Part shown: positions 39,151 to 58,421 of the stretch, piece by piece
Layout of the letters: each line of letters opens with the position of its first letter
How positions within the stretch are numbered: the stretch's first letter is position 1
DNA from: Nitrosopumilus sp.
GTDB lineage: Archaea > Thermoproteota > Nitrososphaeria > Nitrososphaerales > Nitrosopumilaceae
NCBI GenBank assembly: GCA_965205425.1
Contig: CBDBGZ010000009.1
Coordinates: 640,001 to 704,000 of the forward strand
Direction of reading: 5' to 3'
Length of the DNA stretch: 64,000 nt
Program-made: the position numbers and the translations under genes
Notes under the pieces: generated by a model
Seen by the model: only the letters and a program-made list of their open reading frames with translations
Database searches by the model: none
What the model was told of the DNA's origin: nothing

Positions 39151-40044
39151 ATGAAATCAATCGTAGTATTTATCATAATTTTATTAGTGCTAGTAATTCC
39201 TTCTGCGATTGCTCAAGAAGTGAGTATAGGGAAAGAAGCTAATCAAAAATCAATTATTTTTACAATAAACGAAACGGGTGAAATTCATGTTATACACATT
39301 GTTGATTCTTCTAATTCTCCAACACAAGTTGAGTTAATTGACGGTGAAATTCAAAATCTAATCATTACTAATGAAAAAAATGAAGAGCAGATGTTTTCAA
39401 TAATTGGTGAAAATCAAGCTGTATTGATTTTTCCATCAGATAATGATTCAATAATAGAATATGATTTAGAAAATGTACTTTTTCTTAAAGATAATTTTTG
39501 GACATTAGATTTTCTGTATTTAGAAACTACAACTTTTATTGTTCCTGAAAAATTAAATGTGGTTTATGTAAATGGCAATGTAGTTCACTTAGGTGACAAA
39601 AAAGGATTCACATGTCATGGTTGTCAAATGATTTTAGAATATGCATTTAATGAACCTACAAATACCATAAATGTAGATTGGGAAAATAAAAAATTTGTTG
39701 TAGAGATGAGAACTTTTGCCAATATAGAAAATTTTGAGTTCAATCAATCTGAAAAAGAAATTAGTTTTAATGTAAATGAGAGCAATCAATTCATTACAGC
39801 TATAATTCCATTAGAATTATTGTGGGGACCATATGCAATATTACTAGATGATGAAAAAACGTATTTCAATGACTCCAAAAATAATGGCACACATGTTTGG
39901 ATTAATATGAAACCTAATAATACAGGGGAAATTAGTATTATTGGAACTACAGTAGTGCCTGAATTTCCAATAATAGCTCCCTTAGCTATTGGATTTTTAA
40001 TGATAATGATGATTCCTTTAATTAAAAAAATTAATCTCCGCTAG
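39151..40044 (+). CDS. secreted protein with PEF-CTERM sorting signal
   Basis: Signal peptide; C-terminal VVPEFP + TM + basic tail. Confidence 0.82.
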   Translation: MKSIVVFIIILLVLVIPSAIAQEVSIGKEANQKSIIFTINETGEIHVIHIVDSSNSPTQVELIDGEIQNLIITNEKNEEQMFSIIGENQAVLIFPSDNDSIIEYDLENVLFLKDNFWTLDFLYLETTTFIVPEKLNVVYVNGNVVHLGDKKGFTCHGCQMILEYAFNEPTNTINVDWENKKFVVEMRTFANIENFEFNQSEKEISFNVNESNQFITAIIPLELLWGPYAILLDDEKTYFNDSKNNGTHVWINMKPNNTGEISIIGTTVVPEFPIIAPLAIGFLMIMMIPLIKKINLR

Positions 40045-40186
40045 AACCACAAGAGCAGAAACCATATTCATCTATTCTAACATTACAAATGACACATTTT
40101 TCACCATAATCTACTTCCCAGGGTTCCTTACCAAAAAGCTTAAAATGATCATCTATTTCGATTGGAATCTCTCTTTTCTTTTCCAA
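40031..40186 (-). CDS. 51-aa zinc-finger microprotein
   Basis: Read manually (TTG start): MEKKREIPIEIDDHFKLFGKEPWEVDYGEKCVICNVRIDEYGFCSCGSSGD*. Confidence 0.7.
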   Translation of the reverse strand: MEKKREIPIEIDDHFKLFGKEPWEVDYGEKCVICNVRIDEYGFCSCGSSGD

Positions 40187-40234
40187 TGATTTGTATAGTC
40201 ATTTCAACTATACATACATTATCTGAGAATAGTC

Positions 40235-40429
40235 ATGAAAATTGAATGTGGATGTCATTGTATAAAGTGCAAAAGCACAAATTTAGAATCAAACAGAATT
40301 GGGCAAGTTGAGAAAGATGGATATTTTGATATGCATCACACATGTAAACAATGCAATACACATTTTGATCATTTAGATGGAGAAATTTTTTCACACTGTG
40401 AGAAATGTAATTTTTTAATTAGTGACTAG
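40235..40429 (+). CDS. small Cys/His-rich zinc-ribbon protein
   Basis: CGCHCIKC, HHTCKQC, HCEKC. Confidence 0.75.
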   Translation: MKIECGCHCIKCKSTNLESNRIGQVEKDGYFDMHHTCKQCNTHFDHLDGEIFSHCEKCNFLISD

Positions 40430-40906
40430 TTGTTCTTGAGCAAAATAGTGCGTTCTGTTCTCTTCTGAATTTTTCATTATTTCTTTGCTAGAAGCCATTT
40501 TAGCCAAAGCTTTCGATACATCTAATGGACTAGCAGCCCAACCATATTCTCTAAGCTGTTGAACAGTTTCAGTTACAGTTCTTGGTGAATCAAAGAATCT
40601 ACTTGTTTCTAAAATTCTTAATTTTGATTTAATTTCGTGAGCAGTAATGTATTTGGGTTCAGCAAATTCTGGTTCATATGCTTCTGCATCATCTAAATAT
40701 TCTAATCCAAATTGTTCTGATTGCTCAACTTGAGTTGGTTTTTGGATGCTTTCAGACTCGTAAACTATTTTTGCTTGATTTTCAGGTAAGTGGTTTGATA
40801 GATTATCTATGATTTCACCTAATGTTTGATTATCCACGTAAAAATCTCTAGAGTCAACCTCAATTTCGTTTTCGCCTATTTTGAGTTTAATTCTAGCCAT
40901 TGACAA
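40415..40906 (-). CDS. hypothetical protein with C-terminal winged-helix-like region
   Basis: FFDSPRTVTETVQQLREYGW...VSKAL pattern. Confidence 0.7.
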   Translation of the reverse strand: MSMARIKLKIGENEIEVDSRDFYVDNQTLGEIIDNLSNHLPENQAKIVYESESIQKPTQVEQSEQFGLEYLDDAEAYEPEFAEPKYITAHEIKSKLRILETSRFFDSPRTVTETVQQLREYGWAASPLDVSKALAKMASSKEIMKNSEENRTHYFAQEQLVTN

Positions 40907-41030
40907 ATAATCATTTAATTTTGATTTATTCTGTTAGCTCTAAGGAGCTTTAAGATTAGATCAAAACTTTTACACAATTTATTGGGATTTTTTTCCCTTC
41001 AGGTTAAATGTAAATTTGTAAAAACTAGTC

Positions 41031-41480
41031 ATGGAACGATCTAAGAAAGTAGGCGTAATTGTTCTGTTTATACTTGGTATGAGTATTTTTGGATATTCAC
41101 AGTATGCTTCTGCATCTCAAATTGGAGTGAGTATTAGTCAAAGTGAATTATTAGATGAAAATGACGTAGGTTCAAACTATAATGTAGAGTTACAATTTGA
41201 TAATCCCTCATTACTATTACTTTCAGCAGGTGAAACAGAATTTTTTGTAATTTCTAATGATGAAATTATTGGAAAAGGTAATTTGGAATCATTTACTTTA
41301 CAACCATTAGATAGTAGTTATGTAAAAGGTACTTTCCATACTGATGTAAATTCAGACGAAGCACAATCAGTAAAAATTTCAGGTGTAACAAAATATGATA
41401 TGTTGATTACATCTATTGATGTTCCATTTGTATACTATCCTACAGAAGAACAAGCAAGAGAATTTATACATCAAAATTAA
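41031..41480 (+). CDS. membrane-anchored LEA_2-like protein
   Basis: N-terminal TM; VELQFDNPS motif. Confidence 0.65.
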   Translation: MERSKKVGVIVLFILGMSIFGYSQYASASQIGVSISQSELLDENDVGSNYNVELQFDNPSLLLLSAGETEFFVISNDEIIGKGNLESFTLQPLDSSYVKGTFHTDVNSDEAQSVKISGVTKYDMLITSIDVPFVYYPTEEQAREFIHQN

Positions 41481-41491
41481 TTTCTCATCAA

Positions 41492-42385
41492 ATGCTTACT
41501 GTTTTTGGCTCTACAGCACTAGATACAATTAGAACCCCAAAAAAAACATTAAAAAATGTTTTAGGAGGAGCAGCTACCTTTGCAGCAATTTCAGCTAGTA
41601 ATTTTGTAGATACTGGATTAATTGCAGTTGTTGGGAAAGATTTTCCAAAATCACATCATAATACATTGTCAAAATATCTTGATTTGCAAGGATTAACAAT
41701 CAAAGACGGAAAAACATTTCGTTACGATGGGAAATATAATAATACACTTAGTACAAGATCAACATTAAAAACTGAATTAAATGTTCTTGAAGATTTTAAG
41801 GCAACAGTTCCTGAAGCTTATAAAAAATCCCAGTTTGTATATCTTGCAAATAATGATCCAGAACAAAATACATCATTGATTAAAGAATTTGATAAAGTTA
41901 AATTTTCTATGTGTGATACAATAGATTTTTGGATTTCTACAAAACGTGAGGCAGTAATTAAAATGATCAAAGCAGTTGATGCGGTTGTGATTAATGATGA
42001 AGAGGCTAAACTTCTAACCAAAGAATTCAATCTGATAAAATGTGCAAAGAAAATGATGCAATGGGGTGCAAAATATGTTATAATCAAAAAAGGTGAGCAT
42101 GGTTCCTTGATGTTTTATGATGATGTTATTTTTCCAACTGCAGGATTTTCATTAGAAGATGTTGTAGATCCTACAGGAGCAGGGGATTCTTTTGCAGGAG
42201 CAATGATAGGATATCTAGCAAGTAAAAAATCTACTAAAATTTCAGATATCAAAAAAGCTGTTGTTTATGGAAATGTCTTAGGATCATTTGCAGTTGAGAG
42301 ATATGGATTAGATGGTTTAATAAAAATAAAAAATGGGGACATTGCAAAACGTGTAAAAATATATGAAAAAATGATTCGTTTCTAA
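41492..42385 (+). CDS. PfkB/ribokinase-family carbohydrate kinase
   Basis: LGGAATF, KKGEHG, DPTGAGDSFAG. Confidence 0.93.
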   Translation: MLTVFGSTALDTIRTPKKTLKNVLGGAATFAAISASNFVDTGLIAVVGKDFPKSHHNTLSKYLDLQGLTIKDGKTFRYDGKYNNTLSTRSTLKTELNVLEDFKATVPEAYKKSQFVYLANNDPEQNTSLIKEFDKVKFSMCDTIDFWISTKREAVIKMIKAVDAVVINDEEAKLLTKEFNLIKCAKKMMQWGAKYVIIKKGEHGSLMFYDDVIFPTAGFSLEDVVDPTGAGDSFAGAMIGYLASKKSTKISDIKKAVVYGNVLGSFAVERYGLDGLIKIKNGDIAKRVKIYEKMIRF

Positions 42386-42424
42386 AAAGACTTAAGTTCA
42401 ATAATTTTCCAAAATAATTTATCA

Positions 42425-42775
42425 TTGTCACAAGAAACATCTGAAAAAGATCGGCTAGATACAATATTCAAACTTCAACAAGGTCTATCAAACATGATGA
42501 AATTAGATAGGTATCCAAAGGACACTGAAGGAAGAGTTTCTGCATTATGTACAGCAATAATGCATGAGGTAGTTGAGCTACAAAGAACAACAAACTGGAA
42601 ATGGTGGAAAACTCCAGTTGAATTTAACGAAGCTGAAGCAAGAGAAGAATTAATCGATATTTGGCATTTTGTTGTACAAGCATCTTTGGAACTAAAACTT
42701 ACGCCTGATGATATTTTAGATGAGTACAAAAAGAAAAATGAAATAAATCGTGAAAGACAAAGAACAGGATATTAA
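42425..42775 (+). CDS. all-alpha (dimeric) dUTPase family protein
   Basis: HEVVEL, WKWWK, EELIDIWHF, KNEINRERQRTGY. Confidence 0.88.
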   Translation: MSQETSEKDRLDTIFKLQQGLSNMMKLDRYPKDTEGRVSALCTAIMHEVVELQRTTNWKWWKTPVEFNEAEAREELIDIWHFVVQASLELKLTPDDILDEYKKKNEINRERQRTGY

Positions 42776-51768: not shown

Positions 51769-52305
51769 ATGGGAGAAAGTAAGATTTCAGCGATCGAATT
51801 AGTAAAATCAAAGGATGAGTACTCATCTGATGAAAATATTGAGATAAATGTTCAATTTTCAGTCGAAGGTGACCTTAGAAATGCTTTCAATGAGGCTAAT
51901 TGGACCAAAGCCTACAACAACAATGATGTTTCATTCAAATTGAAATTTGGTATTAAATTAACGACTGGTGGATTAAGAAAGAAGGAATTGGGAAGAACTA
52001 TGGATACTTATCGAAAGGCATCAATATTTTGGACAAGAAATCCAAAACTGGTCAATCCAATGAAAGACAGACGAATCTGGGTTCAGGTGGCCAAAAACTT
52101 TGAGCCATTTATCAGACTATCAGAAGAAGAAGTAAGACAAGAATTATTTGATTTTAATGAAAAATTTGTCTTCAAAGCATCAGATTTGGGAAAAGGAACT
52201 CATAAGATAAGTGCTGAAACTTTTGCTTCTTGGCAGAAACATGATTTTACAGAAACTGGAAGTATCAAAAATAGCTCAAGTGATTTAGAGATCACCATCA
52301 ATTAG
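51769..52305 (+). CDS. hypothetical protein (its 3' end carries the island attachment site)
   Basis: 178-aa ORF; stop codon lies inside the TCAATTAGGG repeat. Confidence 0.8.
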   Translation: MGESKISAIELVKSKDEYSSDENIEINVQFSVEGDLRNAFNEANWTKAYNNNDVSFKLKFGIKLTTGGLRKKELGRTMDTYRKASIFWTRNPKLVNPMKDRRIWVQVAKNFEPFIRLSEEEVRQELFDFNEKFVFKASDLGKGTHKISAETFASWQKHDFTETGSIKNSSSDLEITIN

Positions 52306-52373
52306 GGTTAGGCTCAAGATTTACTAAAAATAACGACTAGGGATTTTTAACAGTAATTGAATTATCTGTCTTG

Positions 52374-52541
52374 ATGGCAGTTAGAATAAGTTTTGAAAAT
52401 TCAGAACAAGCTTTGCAGGAATATCTTGACTCTTGTTATGCTGTGTCACATAGTACTGCAACTGTTAACGGTTACAAGAATGCAATAACAGGAAAGACAA
52501 AAGGATTTAGAATATTTCTCAAGGAAAGATACGATTGTGAT
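52374..52541 (+). pseudogene. N-terminal fragment of a probable tyrosine recombinase/integrase, truncated by IS5
   Basis: EYLDSCYAVSHSTATVNGYKNAI...FRIFLKERY resembles the integrase core-binding domain; frame is cut at the IS end. Confidence 0.6.
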
Positions 52542-53424
52542 GGCCTTGTAGAAACCATAATAAAATAACAAAATCTAATTTTCTAATCCTGTAAGCATTG
52601 TATGCAATTAACCTGTACAACATCTCATTGTCCTGAGTTGTAACATTTCTTGATGTGACATCTCCTGACATTATCTGTTTGATCACAAAAAAGATTGTTT
52701 CAGATTTGTTTCTCTGATGGTACAATTGTACAGGAAAGTTCCTCTTCATCTCCTTTCTATGAATTCCACTGGTTCTGTAAATTGGAACTGTTCCATATCG
52801 AGTTGGAATTATTGCAGCTGTGTTGATCTGTTCTGCACCAACATGGTTATTCTCATCATCAAAACCCATGTCACCTAACACAATATCAACTGGAACAATA
52901 TTGTTGGTTTTGTACAACAATGGCAGAAAATCAGGATTATCATGTTGCATGTTGTGGTGTGTCATGACACAGCAAACAAGCTGTGTATTCATGTCAGCAC
53001 AAACAACAACTTTTAGGAAATTCCTGCGTAACTGTACTCTTTTTGTATAATAGTATGATGCTGTACTGTAACTGAATCCGCTACCATCAATTCCAGCTAG
53101 AACCAGTCTGACTTTTTTGTACAAAATGAATTCCTGCAACATTTTATGTAACAGATTTCCTTCCAGTCTTGCAGCTGCCTTTTGTAGTGTGGTGTAATGT
53201 GGAATGGTAGACAAACCAAGATATTCCTGAATTCCTACACATTCTTCTAAAAATTCTGTAAATCTTCTATAACTCTTTGATTCGTACTGTCGTATTGCCA
53301 AGAGTATGAGATGTGTCCAAACAGAATAGATATGATTTGATTTTGGATGTAAGAACCTGGGAATTCTGCATCTGGTGATTATATTGAGTAGTGTTTTGCA
53401 CATTTTGACGTATGATGAGACCAT
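52519..53424 (-). CDS. IS5-family DDE transposase
   Basis: IPHYTTL, GIDGSG, GDMGFD, YHQRNKSET (YREK-like). Confidence 0.9.
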   Translation of the reverse strand: MVSSYVKMCKTLLNIITRCRIPRFLHPKSNHIYSVWTHLILLAIRQYESKSYRRFTEFLEECVGIQEYLGLSTIPHYTTLQKAAARLEGNLLHKMLQEFILYKKVRLVLAGIDGSGFSYSTASYYYTKRVQLRRNFLKVVVCADMNTQLVCCVMTHHNMQHDNPDFLPLLYKTNNIVPVDIVLGDMGFDDENNHVGAEQINTAAIIPTRYGTVPIYRTSGIHRKEMKRNFPVQLYHQRNKSETIFFVIKQIMSGDVTSRNVTTQDNEMLYRLIAYNAYRIRKLDFVILLWFLQGHHNRIFP

Positions 53425-53512
53425 ACTGTAATCTGCAAATACAATCCTAATGGATCTAAATTAGCTAGAATGTATCACAATTGGGTTAAAATCAGATGGT
53501 TTCTACAAGGCC
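52542..53512 (-). mobile_element. IS5-family insertion sequence (971 bp)
   Basis: Perfect 17-bp IRs GGCCTTGTAGAAACCAT (52542-52558 / 53496-53512); no flanking target duplication. Confidence 0.9.
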
Positions 53513-53664
53513 GTTCAAACCCAAAGATTTCAGTGATAATTAGTAGAATTATTGAGAAAAGAAAAAATGCACAAGTTCTAAGTTAATTTAAAGATCTCAG
53601 AATTGACACCCCCAATGTTTTTGGGGTTTCTGCTTGCAATGGATTTTTCATTTTCATCAAAAGA

Positions 53665-54657
53665 TCAAACTTTTAATTTTTGTGTTTTATTTTCAATATC
53701 TTTAGAAATATCACTCATAATTTTTGAAAATTTCTTTAGATCAATAATCAATTTTCCACGTAATGTCACATCTTCACCTTCAATAGCAGCGCCTGTAACA
53801 ATCATTAACTTTCCGGGTAAAATTACTGGATGTCCTACCCTAGCAATCACCATTGAACGCATAGTAGGATATACTTCTTTTATGTGAAATTTTTCATCAG
53901 GTTCAACAGAAATCAAATCCATTAATTGTCGTCGTCGAGTGTCTTTTTCAAAAGATAAGAAACTCTCAGACATTATTCTCAAAAAGCTTACTACATCTTT
54001 TTCACCTTTGCCAATTTTTTCAGCTGCAGAAATGATTCGTTTTCTATTTTTTGATGGAATTTGTTCTACAATTGTTTCAGTACTAACTTCAAGATGGAAA
54101 GGGAATTCAATATCTCTAACAGTAAATTGATCAAATACTTTTTTCCACAGGTTCGCATAATCTAATGCAATCTCAATATCAGTCTCAATTCTTTCTTTTC
54201 CAAAGTGTTTGGAGGTTTTATTTATTCTAGATGAAACTAAGGCGTTTTTTAGATCCTCAGAAACTTTGACTCGGACTTTTATGAATACAGTACCAGATTT
54301 AACATCACGAATTAATTTCCCAAAATCAATTTTTGCTTTGTCCTTTTCGACGGTTATGATTCCCAAATTTACAAGATTTTCATTTTGAGGAATTCCATGC
54401 CCATATATCTCAATTATGTTCTCAAATTCAAGAGGTTTCTTCGTAATGCTTTTGATTTTGTTTAAGATGTCTCCGCTTCGTGAACTTTCATCCCCTAAAG
54501 AGAGCATAAAAGCAAATTCAAATTCTGATGCTCTATGATAAAATGTAGCTCCTTTGTGTATTATTATTTGAGATTTAATCAGATGTTGTATTCCACTATT
54601 TGCAACACTACCCAAAGTATTGAATAATGAACTCAGGAGAATAGGATCAATAGACAA
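53665..54657 (-). CDS. hypothetical protein (330 aa), island cargo
   Basis: Long ORF 3 nt downstream of the 264-aa gene; no recognisable family. Confidence 0.8.
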   Translation of the reverse strand: MSIDPILLSSLFNTLGSVANSGIQHLIKSQIIIHKGATFYHRASEFEFAFMLSLGDESSRSGDILNKIKSITKKPLEFENIIEIYGHGIPQNENLVNLGIITVEKDKAKIDFGKLIRDVKSGTVFIKVRVKVSEDLKNALVSSRINKTSKHFGKERIETDIEIALDYANLWKKVFDQFTVRDIEFPFHLEVSTETIVEQIPSKNRKRIISAAEKIGKGEKDVVSFLRIMSESFLSFEKDTRRRQLMDLISVEPDEKFHIKEVYPTMRSMVIARVGHPVILPGKLMIVTGAAIEGEDVTLRGKLIIDLKKFSKIMSDISKDIENKTQKLKV

Positions 54658-54660
54658 ACT

Positions 54661-55455
54661 CTAAGAAACTTTTGGTTCAAGAAGAATCGTAGATTGCCCC
54701 TTCAAATCAGAAGCAATAGGAACTTCTAGACTTTCTTTTTGTTCAATTTGAATTGGGACATCAATTAATTTTGTTTCATATTTATTTCTCATAGCATCGT
54801 AATATTCAAATCCCATTGAGATCATTCCATAACCTTTTCCTTTTACAATAATTTTTGGAGTAACACTTTGAATAGAATTAACAAAGAGGGGGGTTTCATC
54901 ATCAATATTTTCAACAGTTTGTTTTAATGTGATTTTCATTTCTTTAGCATTAACAACTTCAATAAAGGGTGCAAAATTTAGTATTCTACCCTTCCCTTTA
55001 CTTACTAAATTAAAACTCAATTGAGGGAGCATTGGGTTATCCTTTGTAACAACAATACCACTATTGTTCAAATTTTCTACTGCAATAATTGGTCTTATCA
55101 AATTAGTCTTTAGTGAAATTGTTTCTAATGTTTCATTATTTTTCACAAAGTCGATTTCAAAATTTAATTCGCGCTCTTGTTCTGGAACCAATTCATAAAA
55201 ACAACCAAATCCAATAAAGCCATCAATTAACAACATGTCTTTATCAACTACAGCTTTTCCTATTTTGATACTTTCCTGCGTTAAGACTTTTTCTTCAACG
55301 TTTAGAATTCGGTGTAAATTGATATCAGCTTCTGCTTTGATTAAAATTTGATCAAAATCAAAGTTTTTGTCCCATTTTACCCAAGATAGTATTTCTTCTT
55401 TGGGAAGAGCCCATTCAGAAATGTGTTTTTCAAGAATTTGTAATTTTGGGGCCAT
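54661..55455 (-). CDS. hypothetical beta-rich protein (264 aa), island cargo
   Basis: Long ORF, AGGAG upstream of ATG; alternating hydrophobic pattern; no recognisable family. Confidence 0.8.
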   Translation of the reverse strand: MAPKLQILEKHISEWALPKEEILSWVKWDKNFDFDQILIKAEADINLHRILNVEEKVLTQESIKIGKAVVDKDMLLIDGFIGFGCFYELVPEQERELNFEIDFVKNNETLETISLKTNLIRPIIAVENLNNSGIVVTKDNPMLPQLSFNLVSKGKGRILNFAPFIEVVNAKEMKITLKQTVENIDDETPLFVNSIQSVTPKIIVKGKGYGMISMGFEYYDAMRNKYETKLIDVPIQIEQKESLEVPIASDLKGQSTILLEPKVS

Positions 55456-55508
55456 ATCATATTCTCCTAAGTAGGTCTAAATGAAGATTATCGTGTATTC
55501 TATAAAAT

Positions 55509-56550
55509 TGTTCTTTCCAGAAATTATTTCGTGTCACTTTCATGAGTAATTCCTCCATAGAATGCTTGGGTCTATGAGTATTTCGTTTGTTATCATCTTG
55601 GAGTGATACGCATCAGATGGTGTCTCCATGTTATCCAAGTCTAGTGCGCCATGAACTCTAATGTGATTGTACCAATGCATAAACTGCTCCACTGACTCAA
55701 AGTATTCTATTTTACACTCAAAGATATCCCAGAACTTTTCTAGCTTACCATTTGTTTGTGGATGTCTCACTCTTGTACGAGAGTGCTTTACGTGATGTCT
55801 CATTAGTTGCTGCTCAAAGTCTACTGGCTTGTTATGATCAAGAGTATTGACATTTGATGTGAACTGTTTTCCATTATCAGATAGTACGGATGCTGGTCTA
55901 CCGTGATTCTTTATTGCATCAGATAGTACTGCAGAAGAATTCACAGATGTTGCCTCATCATACACTCCGAAACCCGTGATAAATCGTGAGGCATCATCTT
56001 CAAATGCAATTAGTTGTTTTCCTGCCCAGCGTGAATCATGTATTGTGTGCCAGTCAGTATGCCACAGTGAATTTGAATATTCACGTTCATACCTGATCCA
56101 CTTTCTTCTCATCTTTTTCCGTGGTTGCTCAACTGATAATCCTTCATCTAGCATAATCTTGTGGATGCGATTGTGGTTTATCTTGGTATTGTACAATTTT
56201 GATATGATTTTCTCAAGGTATAGTGCGTTTGTATGAAATTTTTCTTGAACTTGTTTGACTAGCTCTATCTCGTGTACAGTGACTGGCTTTTTTGGACGCC
56301 CTGGTCTTTTGAGTGTGGGAATCTTTTTGGTTTTTTTGTACTGAGAGTAGACTTGTTGTACTCTTCTAGGCGTTATCTTGAGGATTACTGAAATATCTAA
56401 ATTCTTGACTTTTTCATTTTTAGATTGTATAATCCACCTGATCTTATTCTCATCTAACTTTACCATAGGTATGCCACGATACCCACGCATACGATAGTAT
56501 GGGAATGATGCTCTCCTAGTTAAGGGGTGAAATAATTTCCGGAAAAGATA
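55509..56550 (-). mobile_element. IS481-family insertion sequence
   Basis: 22-bp imperfect IRs TGTTCTTTCCAGAAATTATTTC / TATCTTTTCCGGAAATTATTTC (18/22); no clear target duplication. Confidence 0.82.
55540..56466 (-). CDS. IS481-family transposase (rve integrase core)
   Basis: LWHTDW, EDDASR, LSDNGKQF, PQTNGKLEKF; start at MVKLDE preferred because the longer ORF starts outside the IR. Confidence 0.9.
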   Translation of the reverse strand: MVKLDENKIRWIIQSKNEKVKNLDISVILKITPRRVQQVYSQYKKTKKIPTLKRPGRPKKPVTVHEIELVKQVQEKFHTNALYLEKIISKLYNTKINHNRIHKIMLDEGLSVEQPRKKMRRKWIRYEREYSNSLWHTDWHTIHDSRWAGKQLIAFEDDASRFITGFGVYDEATSVNSSAVLSDAIKNHGRPASVLSDNGKQFTSNVNTLDHNKPVDFEQQLMRHHVKHSRTRVRHPQTNGKLEKFWDIFECKIEYFESVEQFMHWYNHIRVHGALDLDNMETPSDAYHSKMITNEILIDPSILWRNYS

Positions 56551-56605
56551 ATACAAGTCATCATGAAAGTATTAAAAAGACTAGATCTCGTAAGATGTGA
56601 TAGTA

Positions 56606-57298
56606 ATGCTTGAGGGAAAGAAGTATTCGTCAATTAATGCGGCACAACTTCTAGGTCGCCCACTTAATGATATTGAATTAAAAGCTGATCCAGGACCACT
56701 TTTCGTAGAAGGTTCTTTAGATATTCCATTACCATGCCCAAAAGTATCAATCATTGGTTCCAGAAAAGCATCTACACAAGGAATTGCAAATGCTCAAAAA
56801 ATTGCAAAAGTGCTCATCGATAATCAAGTAATTATTGTTAGTGGACTTGCTGAAGGAATTGATACTGCAGCACATGTAACAGCATTAAACATGAATGGGA
56901 AAACTATTGCTGTAATTGGTACACCGTTAGACAAAGCATATCCAAAAATAAATTATGAACTTCAACAAGAATTAATGAAAAGTCATCTAGTAGTTTCACA
57001 ATTCCCTACAGGTTATCCAATTACTGGGAAAAATTTTGTAATACGAAATAGTACAATGGCACTTATTTCTGATGCTTCAGTAATTGTAGAAGCTGGAAAA
57101 ACAAGTGGTTCAAAACATCAAGGGTGGGAAACTCTCAGAATGGGAAGACCATTATTCATATGGGAATCTGTTGTGAACGACAAAGAATTAGATTGGCCTA
57201 CAGAAATGATTGAACATGGAGCAGTAGAACTATCTGATCCATCAGATATACTTGAAGTACTACCAACACGTTTTGAAGTAATTGATGTATTTCAATAA
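56606..57298 (+). CDS. dprA: DprA/Smf-like protein (Rossmann domain only); putative ShosA-type antitoxin
   Basis: IIGSRKAS, VSGLAEGIDTAAH, TIAVIGT, FVIRN, VEAGKTSGS. Confidence 0.9.
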   Translation: MLEGKKYSSINAAQLLGRPLNDIELKADPGPLFVEGSLDIPLPCPKVSIIGSRKASTQGIANAQKIAKVLIDNQVIIVSGLAEGIDTAAHVTALNMNGKTIAVIGTPLDKAYPKINYELQQELMKSHLVVSQFPTGYPITGKNFVIRNSTMALISDASVIVEAGKTSGSKHQGWETLRMGRPLFIWESVVNDKELDWPTEMIEHGAVELSDPSDILEVLPTRFEVIDVFQ

Positions 57299-57953
57299 TG
57301 AAAATTAATAATATTGATTTTGGATCTCTTCTTACATATTCCCTCGTGGAAATACAAAGGAAGAGGCTCGTTCAAGAACATTTAAAGCAAAATTGAAGAG
57401 TGATGGATATTTAGAAAAAGAAAACATTCTGATGACAGAATACATAGCAAAAGGAATTAAGAATAATTTAGAAAAACTTCCTTTTGCTCATTTCTTTAAA
57501 GCAAATTCTATCCTTATTCCAACTCCAAGTAGTTCTCTTACTAAAGCAAATACACTTTGGGTTCCACAACGTTTAGCAACTGCTTTAGTGAATAATGGTC
57601 TAGGAAAGAAAGTCAGTTCATGTCTTGAACGTACAAGTCCTTTACGAAAATCCCATACAAGCTCAAATGTAAACAGACCAAAAGCTCAAGAACATTATGA
57701 TACGATGGCAGTTCAAAAAGAACTTTCTGAACCTGATGAAATTTTACTAATAGATGATTTCATAACCAGAGGATCTACATTCATTGGAGCTGCAAATAGA
57801 CTGAGAGATGCATTCCCAAATGCCAATATTCGAGCATTTGCTGGAATAAAGACAATAAGCAGACCAGAGAATTTTAAGAGAATTTATGATCCATGTATAG
57901 GAAAAATTGAATTTGATGGTGTAGATTCATTCAACGATTGTATTGAAGAATAA
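57298..57953 (+). pseudogene. ComF-like phosphoribosyltransferase (putative toxin) with a 1-bp frameshift near 57341
   Basis: ATG 57298 overlaps the dprA stop; MKINNIDFGSLLTYS then a -1 shift restores PRGNTKEE...LKSDG; PRPP loop LLIDDFITRGST; LIPTPSS. Confidence 0.82.
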
Positions 57954-57978
57954 AATTTCATATTATTTAGTCATGAAA

Positions 57979-58254
57979 TTAGAGATCTAAATTACAATTC
58001 ATACAATACCATTGCCCATCAGCAGTCTTATCTCTCATCTTTTTTGGATGTTTACAATTTGGAACTAATTCTTTTTTGATTATATCCAAAACTCGGATAT
58101 TGTCTTTATGACAGTCTGAAAGTGTCTTTGCAAGTTTGCCTATACTATCATCTCCAATATTCCAGGATTTTGATGGGTCACTCATGGCAGTATGCATTCT
58201 TGTTTCATAATCAATTAGAAAATCAAGTAATTGTAAGGATTTTTTGACTGTCAT
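57979..58254 (-). CDS. hypothetical protein with C-terminal Zn-ribbon
   Basis: CKH...WYCMNC at C-terminus; last gene of the island. Confidence 0.7.
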   Translation of the reverse strand: MTVKKSLQLLDFLIDYETRMHTAMSDPSKSWNIGDDSIGKLAKTLSDCHKDNIRVLDIIKKELVPNCKHPKKMRDKTADGQWYCMNCNLDL

Positions 58255-58421
58255 ATACTCAATATCAGATTATGATAAAAAATGAAATATTAAAAAAGAA
58301 TTAACTGTAAAATCAGTGTTGTACAGTTACATTTTGAAGCTAAACATGCCTGAAAAAGCGGTTATTATAAAAAAATATTCCAGTCAATTAGGGATATAAG
58401 GAACTTTTTTGGTGAATTAAT

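Follow-up and report, generated by a model that had tools for sequence, protein, structure and literature searches.

The window, i.e., the whole stretch of 64,000 nucleotides analyzed here, has flanks that code for PCNA, TFS and RpoL and contains a 6.1-kb island (52308-58393) flanked by a 10-bp direct repeat (Table 1). The original prediction placed two intact ORFs of 264 and 330 aa in this region, and both were recovered in the order gene A then gene B, with a gap of 3 nt. A 2051-bp segment spanning A and B showed 0 differences in contigs from two public runs, which may derive from the sample that yielded the window itself. For both genes, the nearest homologues bearing a name came from a Nitrosarchaeum MAG, and, with the flanking genes, this makes a Nitrosopumilus-type ammonia oxidizer the probable host. 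When compared with the three closest loci, dN/dS was 0.14-0.21 for A and 0.09-0.13 for B, while a fourth comparison was saturated; judged by these substitution ratios, A and B are real genes under purifying selection. The dN values were similar for both genes (0.11-0.26 for A and 0.11-0.23 for B). A sigma-70 promoter scan returned 19 sites versus 13.6 +/- 3.3 expected, using a model that is unsuited to archaea. As had been claimed, no transmembrane helix was detected in either protein (best 19-residue Kyte-Doolittle mean of 1.26 for A and 1.47 for B), and no signal peptide was seen in the N-termini of A or B, which were judged by eye. The maximum 19-residue mean in 23 A-B pairs was 1.54, which is below transmembrane strength.

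Table 1. Features of the island and its left edge, in window coordinates.
Feature	Position	Strand	Remarks
Conserved gene at left island edge	51769-52305		178 aa
Left 10-bp direct repeat, TCAATTAGGG (att-like)	52298..52307	+	Overlaps stop codon of the conserved 178-aa gene
Tyrosine-integrase-like N-terminal stub	52371..52541	+	57 aa, cut by IS5
IS5-family element	52542..53512	-	17-bp perfect terminal inverted repeats; 22 near-full-length genome copies
Gene B	53665..54657	-	330 aa, TTG start
Gene A	54661..55455	-	264 aa, ATG start
IS481-like element between gene A and shosA	55509..56550	-	1042 bp; 32 near-full-length genome copies
ShosA/DprA-like antitoxin gene, intact	56597..57298	+	PADLOC ShosA E 8e-69; Pfam DNA_processg_A
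ShosT-like PRTase toxin gene, frameshifted near 57340	57298..57953	+	PADLOC ShosT E 4e-25 (3' part)
ORF without family match	57979..58254	-	91 aa, Cys-rich motif at end
Right 10-bp direct repeat	58384..58393	+	

The 10-bp repeat occurs 6 times across the 2.2-Mb genome and is present as a single copy at the empty site in relatives G008 and G032. The site was empty in three of five same-genus genomes, in which the small genes found here from ~58420 onward come immediately after the 178-aa gene; in the fourth genome the site is occupied by a DprA-like gene of its own, and in the fifth by unrelated cargo. Within the genus, the 3' end of the 178-aa gene acts as a hotspot for insertions (window 52298-58393; G172, L140:3230-3931; G152, L142:5559-9716). 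Over 53 aa, the integrase-like stub was 43% identical to an ORF of 380 aa at G000:C9:786672, which was named an integrase by eye from its motifs, without a library scan.

The two genes had been described as lying in an otherwise decayed island, divergent from a DprA-PRTase pair. The integrase stub and the broken PRTase gene agree with decay, but two transposase ORFs are open. The orientation is indeed divergent, but the IS481-type element stands between the two pairs and the PRTase gene is frameshifted; this frameshift was also present in contigs of three runs, with no indel relative to the window. Both IS are multi-copy in the genome, and the transposases are therefore uninformative on the function of the island. 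A composite transposon was rejected, as the two IS belong to different families and each has more than 20 genome copies. The window's genome (G000) exhibits an IS bloom, with 22 and 32 near-identical copies of these two IS plus further families. A-B is the sole intact multi-gene cargo remaining in the island. In G175, an ORF resembling the 91-aa ORF by eye is located directly after B (L036:6915-7178).

Pairing, subtypes and distribution

The original prediction reported no recognizable motif or known family, and the library searches bear this out. In Pfam, neither protein had a significant match, the sole hit being SipL with A at E 0.056. PADLOC 2.0.0 (2023) gave 0 families at E<=1 for both proteins and, for 10 other members of the family drawn from the two subtypes, 0 at E<=0.001. 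NCBIfam and PHROGs gave no match, and PDB sequences gave no significant match (best E 0.066 and 0.62). No relatives were found in viral contigs searched with two A profiles, in plasmids, or in phages searched with one subtype-II B. A keyword search of the literature returned no paper on such a pair, a search that an unnamed family would escape and that supplements listing it without a name may also elude. By sequence comparison, A-B is an undescribed two-gene archaeal family of two subtypes in the libraries tested.

Close sequence searches returned 24 B and 19-23 A proteins, and a B profile run against 1.84 billion proteins returned 68 clusters (50% identity); 10 B-cluster entries that were looked up bore no name beyond 'hypothetical'. 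Subtype II was found through weak genome matches. Its A proteins are 330-365 aa in length, with a ~100-residue helical insertion in the second domain, and its B proteins are 305-340 aa. The two subtypes are homologous by hhalign (97.6% for A; 92.8% over 264 columns for B, for which shallower profiles gave just 1% and 54%), at a mean identity of 17% for A and 13% for B. Subtype I formed one supported branch in both gene trees, a result already expected from linkage alone. Profile comparison did not support A and B as paralogues of each other (0.2% and 0.3%).

Matches in host-class genomes numbered 14/401, 7/401 and 16/396, and 18 genomes had clear copies in all; the family was found in ~5% of the sampled host-class genomes. 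A further 11 of 396 genomes matched in a second class of the same phylum, which appears to be Bathyarchaeia. Several carriers have large, IS-rich or ~70% GC genomes. The window's genome has a second copy, of subtype II, at G000:C5 about 39500-42600 (L041:6510-9623), in which B is IS-split; a PD-Lambda-3A-like gene lies directly upstream and a type III RM system 4 kb off. The ~70% GC genome G345 has four divergent copies on C2 (L095, L096, L097 and L099), one intact and three broken. A 909-aa A fusion (G203) and a 420-aa form (G292) were set aside, because their low-complexity sequence suggests read-through in GC-rich DNA to a start further upstream.

Pairing was assessed in 43 loci scanned with five profiles, with near-duplicates left out and several loci coming from one genome. 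The check proposed earlier, constant pairing in a homologue and neighborhood search, came out in favor of the pair, with A then B in 34 of 43 loci. The pair was intact in 23 loci, with gaps of -29 to +17 nt, and in 11 loci both genes were present, but one of them was broken or truncated at a contig end; among these 11, the B of L110 was recognized by eye and the A of L036 came from the profile search of genomes. Nine loci had A only (four intact or near-intact, i.e., L031, L038, L100 and L101; four broken; one at a contig end), a class that is inflated because most loci were found with A queries. Two further loci found through B (L011 and L055) carry B pieces only. Every intact B found in the 401 class genomes with both subtype-I profiles had an adjoining A, and B was located directly downstream of A in 9/9 metagenome loci found with A, including three near-duplicates. 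An intact B was observed beside a fragmented A in L113 and beside an IS-split A in L037. No third gene constantly travelled with the pair in any context examined.

The proposal of a cytoplasmic two-component module fits these results: the pair moves as a unit, is patchy, occupies variable sites and has no segment of transmembrane strength. The converse possibility, that the homologues occur independently of each other or belong to a housekeeping or surface family, was answered in part; the genes are paired and have no housekeeping match, but 9/43 loci contain A only and the Ig fold of A is common to surface proteins.

Predicted structures of A and B

The model of A, built with 32 sequences, had a pLDDT of 83 and is nearly all beta, as had been anticipated. 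In this model, A would comprise two tandem Ig-like beta-sandwich domains (~1-122 and 123-252). A fold search with domain 1 returned Ig folds of pilins, adhesins and cohesins at Z 8-9.4 with no standout; the best was 8gsy_B (Z 9.4, rmsd 2.9, 107 aligned), followed by 4igb_C (Z 8.9). Many unrelated Ig folds reach these Z values too, and identity is 4-16%. The CARDB-like Atlas features of A were weak and below the recognition threshold. The Gram-positive pilin and adhesin domains of CnaA type and the CARDB and cohesin Ig domains resemble domain 1 of A in general fold, whereas A lacks their signal peptide and anchor. The residues conserved across both subtypes are L17, E20, N52, G82, R121-P122, G154 and a YxDxxxNxY motif, which is probably structural. 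A pilin-type isopeptide bond in A was rejected, as the required Lys is not conserved family-wide.

The model of B, built from a 70-sequence alignment, had a pLDDT of 90 and a pTM of 0.82. It consists of N-terminal helices (5-28), a beta domain (32-131) and a second beta domain with long strands (141-306), which includes a helical insert (193-248), followed by a C-terminal helix (307-325). The earlier description of an N-terminal helix followed by beta-rich regions holds for the first helices and the beta domains, but B as a whole is alpha/beta owing to its insert and C-terminal helix. The Foldseek matches were sandwiches of the Ost1, mu-homology and aminopeptidase types, all at low TM (0.26 or less), and a structure search of 48,161 chains gave a best Z of 5.4; the weak structural neighbors of the first beta domain were pilin/adhesin Ig domains. 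Viral structure models gave no match to B (best E 0.004, TM 0.14). As modeled, B has no close solved structure. The nearest Atlas feature clusters for B pointed to the fourth domain of BREX BrxC (PF25796) at a score of 0.90-0.92, below the recognition threshold; in the three best clusters, 11-44% of members carry PF25796. However, B has no Pfam, PADLOC or NCBIfam match and no ATPase, and no BREX locus is tied to the pair.

Actinoporins, ClyA and HeLo/Bell domains are pore-formers or death effectors with an N-terminal amphipathic helix. B has such a helix as well, in its case before a beta-sandwich, but shows no sequence or structure match to these proteins in Pfam, PDB sequences, Foldseek or the structure search, and its helix is charged in subtype II. 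No actinoporin, ClyA, MACPF, gasdermin or aerolysin was among the top 50 structural matches of B, a list from which absence excludes no family. The first helix had a hydrophobic moment of 0.49 with 1 charge in 18 residues, compared with 0.45-0.63 and 5-8 charges for the other helices of B. Its charged fraction was 0.11 in subtype I and 0.26 in subtype II, and that of the whole protein was 0.26.

Positions of B conserved across both subtypes were mostly Pro, Gly or hydrophobic (P281 in 20/20, G301 in 19/20 and P201 in 18/20). The best-conserved charged position was E47 (13/20), and no catalytic-type residue was conserved across both B subtypes. From the conservation pattern of A and B, we infer that neither is an enzyme.

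Possible roles of the pair

We considered A to be a predicted sensor or adaptor and B a predicted non-enzymatic effector. A role of the pair in defense is a candidate that we place just short of an even chance, and as such it is reasonable but unproven. The more specific reading that we prefer, a non-enzymatic sensor-effector pair directed against viruses, is held tentatively, as possible rather than probable. In such a pair, the Ig-fold protein A would recognize a viral protein and, once bound, would trigger B; B would then oligomerize with its N-terminal helix freed, and the helix would damage the membrane or arrest the infected cell. The full chain, in which A senses and B acts on the membrane, is unlikely as a whole, and B as a membrane effector is speculative. 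The broader version, an archaea-specific, enzyme-free innate immunity in which a tandem-Ig receptor (A) activates a membrane-disrupting protein of new fold (B) via the released amphipathic helix, shared between ammonia-oxidizing archaea and another class of their phylum, is likewise rather unlikely. We infer every step beyond a co-inherited pair with predicted folds.

A model for the role of A is offered by the bacterial Schlafen pSlfn5, whose cytoplasmic Ig-like domain is reported to recognize tail assembly chaperones of phages (PMC13056530). Both would be cytoplasmic Ig-like beta-sandwiches, A by its model. However, the sensor of pSlfn5 is fused to a tRNase, whereas A is a separate two-domain protein, and the two were compared by fold description only. 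No Schlafen or other nuclease domain was matched in A or B in Pfam, PADLOC or NCBIfam. Ig-like domains are also present in CnuC of CoCoNuT, with no known role (PMC11090510). ShosTA, reported to be a two-gene anti-phage toxin-antitoxin (TA) system (PMC11961720, PMC12961424), is matched by the DprA-PRTase pair on the island, the toxin gene of which is frameshifted; A and B are unrelated to it. No ShosTA neighbor was found at the other A-B loci examined.

Several observations favor the preferred sensor-effector reading, i.e., the pairing, the homology of the two subtypes in both genes, the position as mobile cargo at a site empty in relatives, the patchiness, the frequent decay, the lack of an enzyme signature and the precedent of pSlfn5. 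The neighborhood of the loci had been expected to be enriched in defense genes, and this expectation failed to reach significance. For 20 loci, the 4.5 kb to the left and to the right were set against 20 control windows of 9 kb from the same contigs, all picked before scanning. PADLOC defense genes (cut-off E<=1e-10) were present at 9/20 loci versus 5/20 controls (two-sided Fisher p=0.32), or at 8/20 without a Rad50-like hit (p=0.50), and Pfam defense-type families, as classed by the analyst, were present at 6/20 versus 3/20 (p=0.45). The PADLOC comparison covered the ORFs without a housekeeping Pfam match, which numbered 100/192 in the test set and 68/158 in the control set. The trend is in the expected direction and unproven, and the carrier genomes are defense-rich anyway. 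At 11 of the 20 loci there was no PADLOC match within 4.5 kb.

The defense neighbors at single loci are striking and also favor the sensor-effector reading, but they were chosen by eye and are unmatched to controls. They include ShosTA in the window, the PD-Lambda-3A-like gene directly upstream of the pair in L041, an Mrr-type nuclease directly downstream in L104 and L105, and type III RM directly downstream in L094. YhcG and HD-CE flank the pair in L113, one on each side, a MORC-type ATPase is nearby in L101, and a PD-Lambda-4A-like gene is nearby in L036. Archaeal proteins of ~1250 aa with a PD-Lambda-4A match and no Pfam match were observed at L036:389-4162 (E 5e-28) and L128:7940-11644 (E 7e-38). 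At L002:11509-17807, the pair adjoins a Cas1 gene and an 886-aa ORF that is PolB-like by eye, forming a casposon-like cluster.

Against the sensor-effector reading, A is about as conserved as B, whereas a sensor in an arms race might diverge faster. In addition, the matched neighborhood test is not significant, and some loci (L107, L108 and L030) sit amid housekeeping genes. The modeled fold of A is common to pilins, adhesins and cohesins, no solved pore-former is among the best structural matches of the modeled B, and the predicted uncharged first helix is found in subtype I only. Four loci also keep an intact or near-intact A without B.

The most probable alternative, which we nevertheless consider unlikely, is an accessory cytoplasmic scaffold with a non-defense role (stress or protein sorting), spread as a passenger of mobile DNA in genomes rich in IS. 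The non-significant defense enrichment and the housekeeping surroundings at several loci would suit such a scaffold, as would the weak 3Di likeness of B to the mu-homology and Ost1 domains; however, the pair lacks a conserved third partner gene in every context. Conflict genes typically show frequent gain, loss and decay, and this pattern in the pair is more typical of them than of a scaffold.

A TA addiction module is decidedly unlikely. In this case, B would be constitutively toxic, A would bind and neutralize it, and the mobile DNA would thereby be stabilized. The gene order is antitoxin-first, with coupled spacing in the 23 intact pairs, and the pair adjoins another TA pair. A also stands alone in the four intact or near-intact cases, while no intact B was seen without an A gene or remnant, but discovery with A queries biases towards A-only loci. 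In L113 and L037, moreover, B is intact by a fragmented or IS-split A, which weakens this reading, and neither a DNA-binding domain in A nor an enzymatic domain in B is predicted.

We are equally doubtful of a surface or host-interaction pair, adhesin- or pilin-like, that would leave the cell by non-classical export and be favored in animal-associated lineages. The pilin/adhesin Ig domains are the best structural neighbors of A and weak ones of the first domain of B, and the CARDB-like features of A, although below the recognition threshold, point the same way. Several carriers are large, IS-rich or ~70% GC, one of them with four loci; elevated GC and a variable transposase load are reported for sponge-associated Thaumarchaeota (PMC7848895). 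However, no segment of transmembrane strength was present in the 23 pairs, no signal peptide was visible, no conserved secretion genes are near the pair, the Lys for a pilin isopeptide bond is not conserved family-wide, and members of the family are present in another archaeal class as well.

Least probable of all is a non-toxic restriction, in which the A-B complex would sequester a viral or plasmid protein (e.g., an assembly intermediate) and the cell would survive: A and B have the look of binding scaffolds and lack a conserved catalytic set, and a broken A is tolerated next to an intact B, but the same weak neighborhood signal applies and the N-terminal amphipathic helix kept in both subtypes stays unexplained.

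The pair is invisible to every library tested and is old enough for its subtypes to stand at 13-17% identity. Should it be defensive, as in the preferred sensor-effector reading, nitrifiers of global importance would possess an immune module that is lineage-specific and enzyme-free; without a defensive role, A and B still form a new family of two proteins, one of which has an unmatched arrangement of folds. What is new lies in the parts and the pairing of A and B, and their function is predicted only.

Two loci contain B in other arrangements. At L011:9587-10504, in a Nitrososphaera MAG, the C-terminal half of B is located behind a fragment that is phosphoesterase-like by eye, and it is probably a rearranged remnant. 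At L102:6458-7897 (G195), an extra subtype-II B that faces an intact pair is preceded by an N-terminal domain of 190 aa without a known family, a fusion that is a possible clue to B as an effector module.
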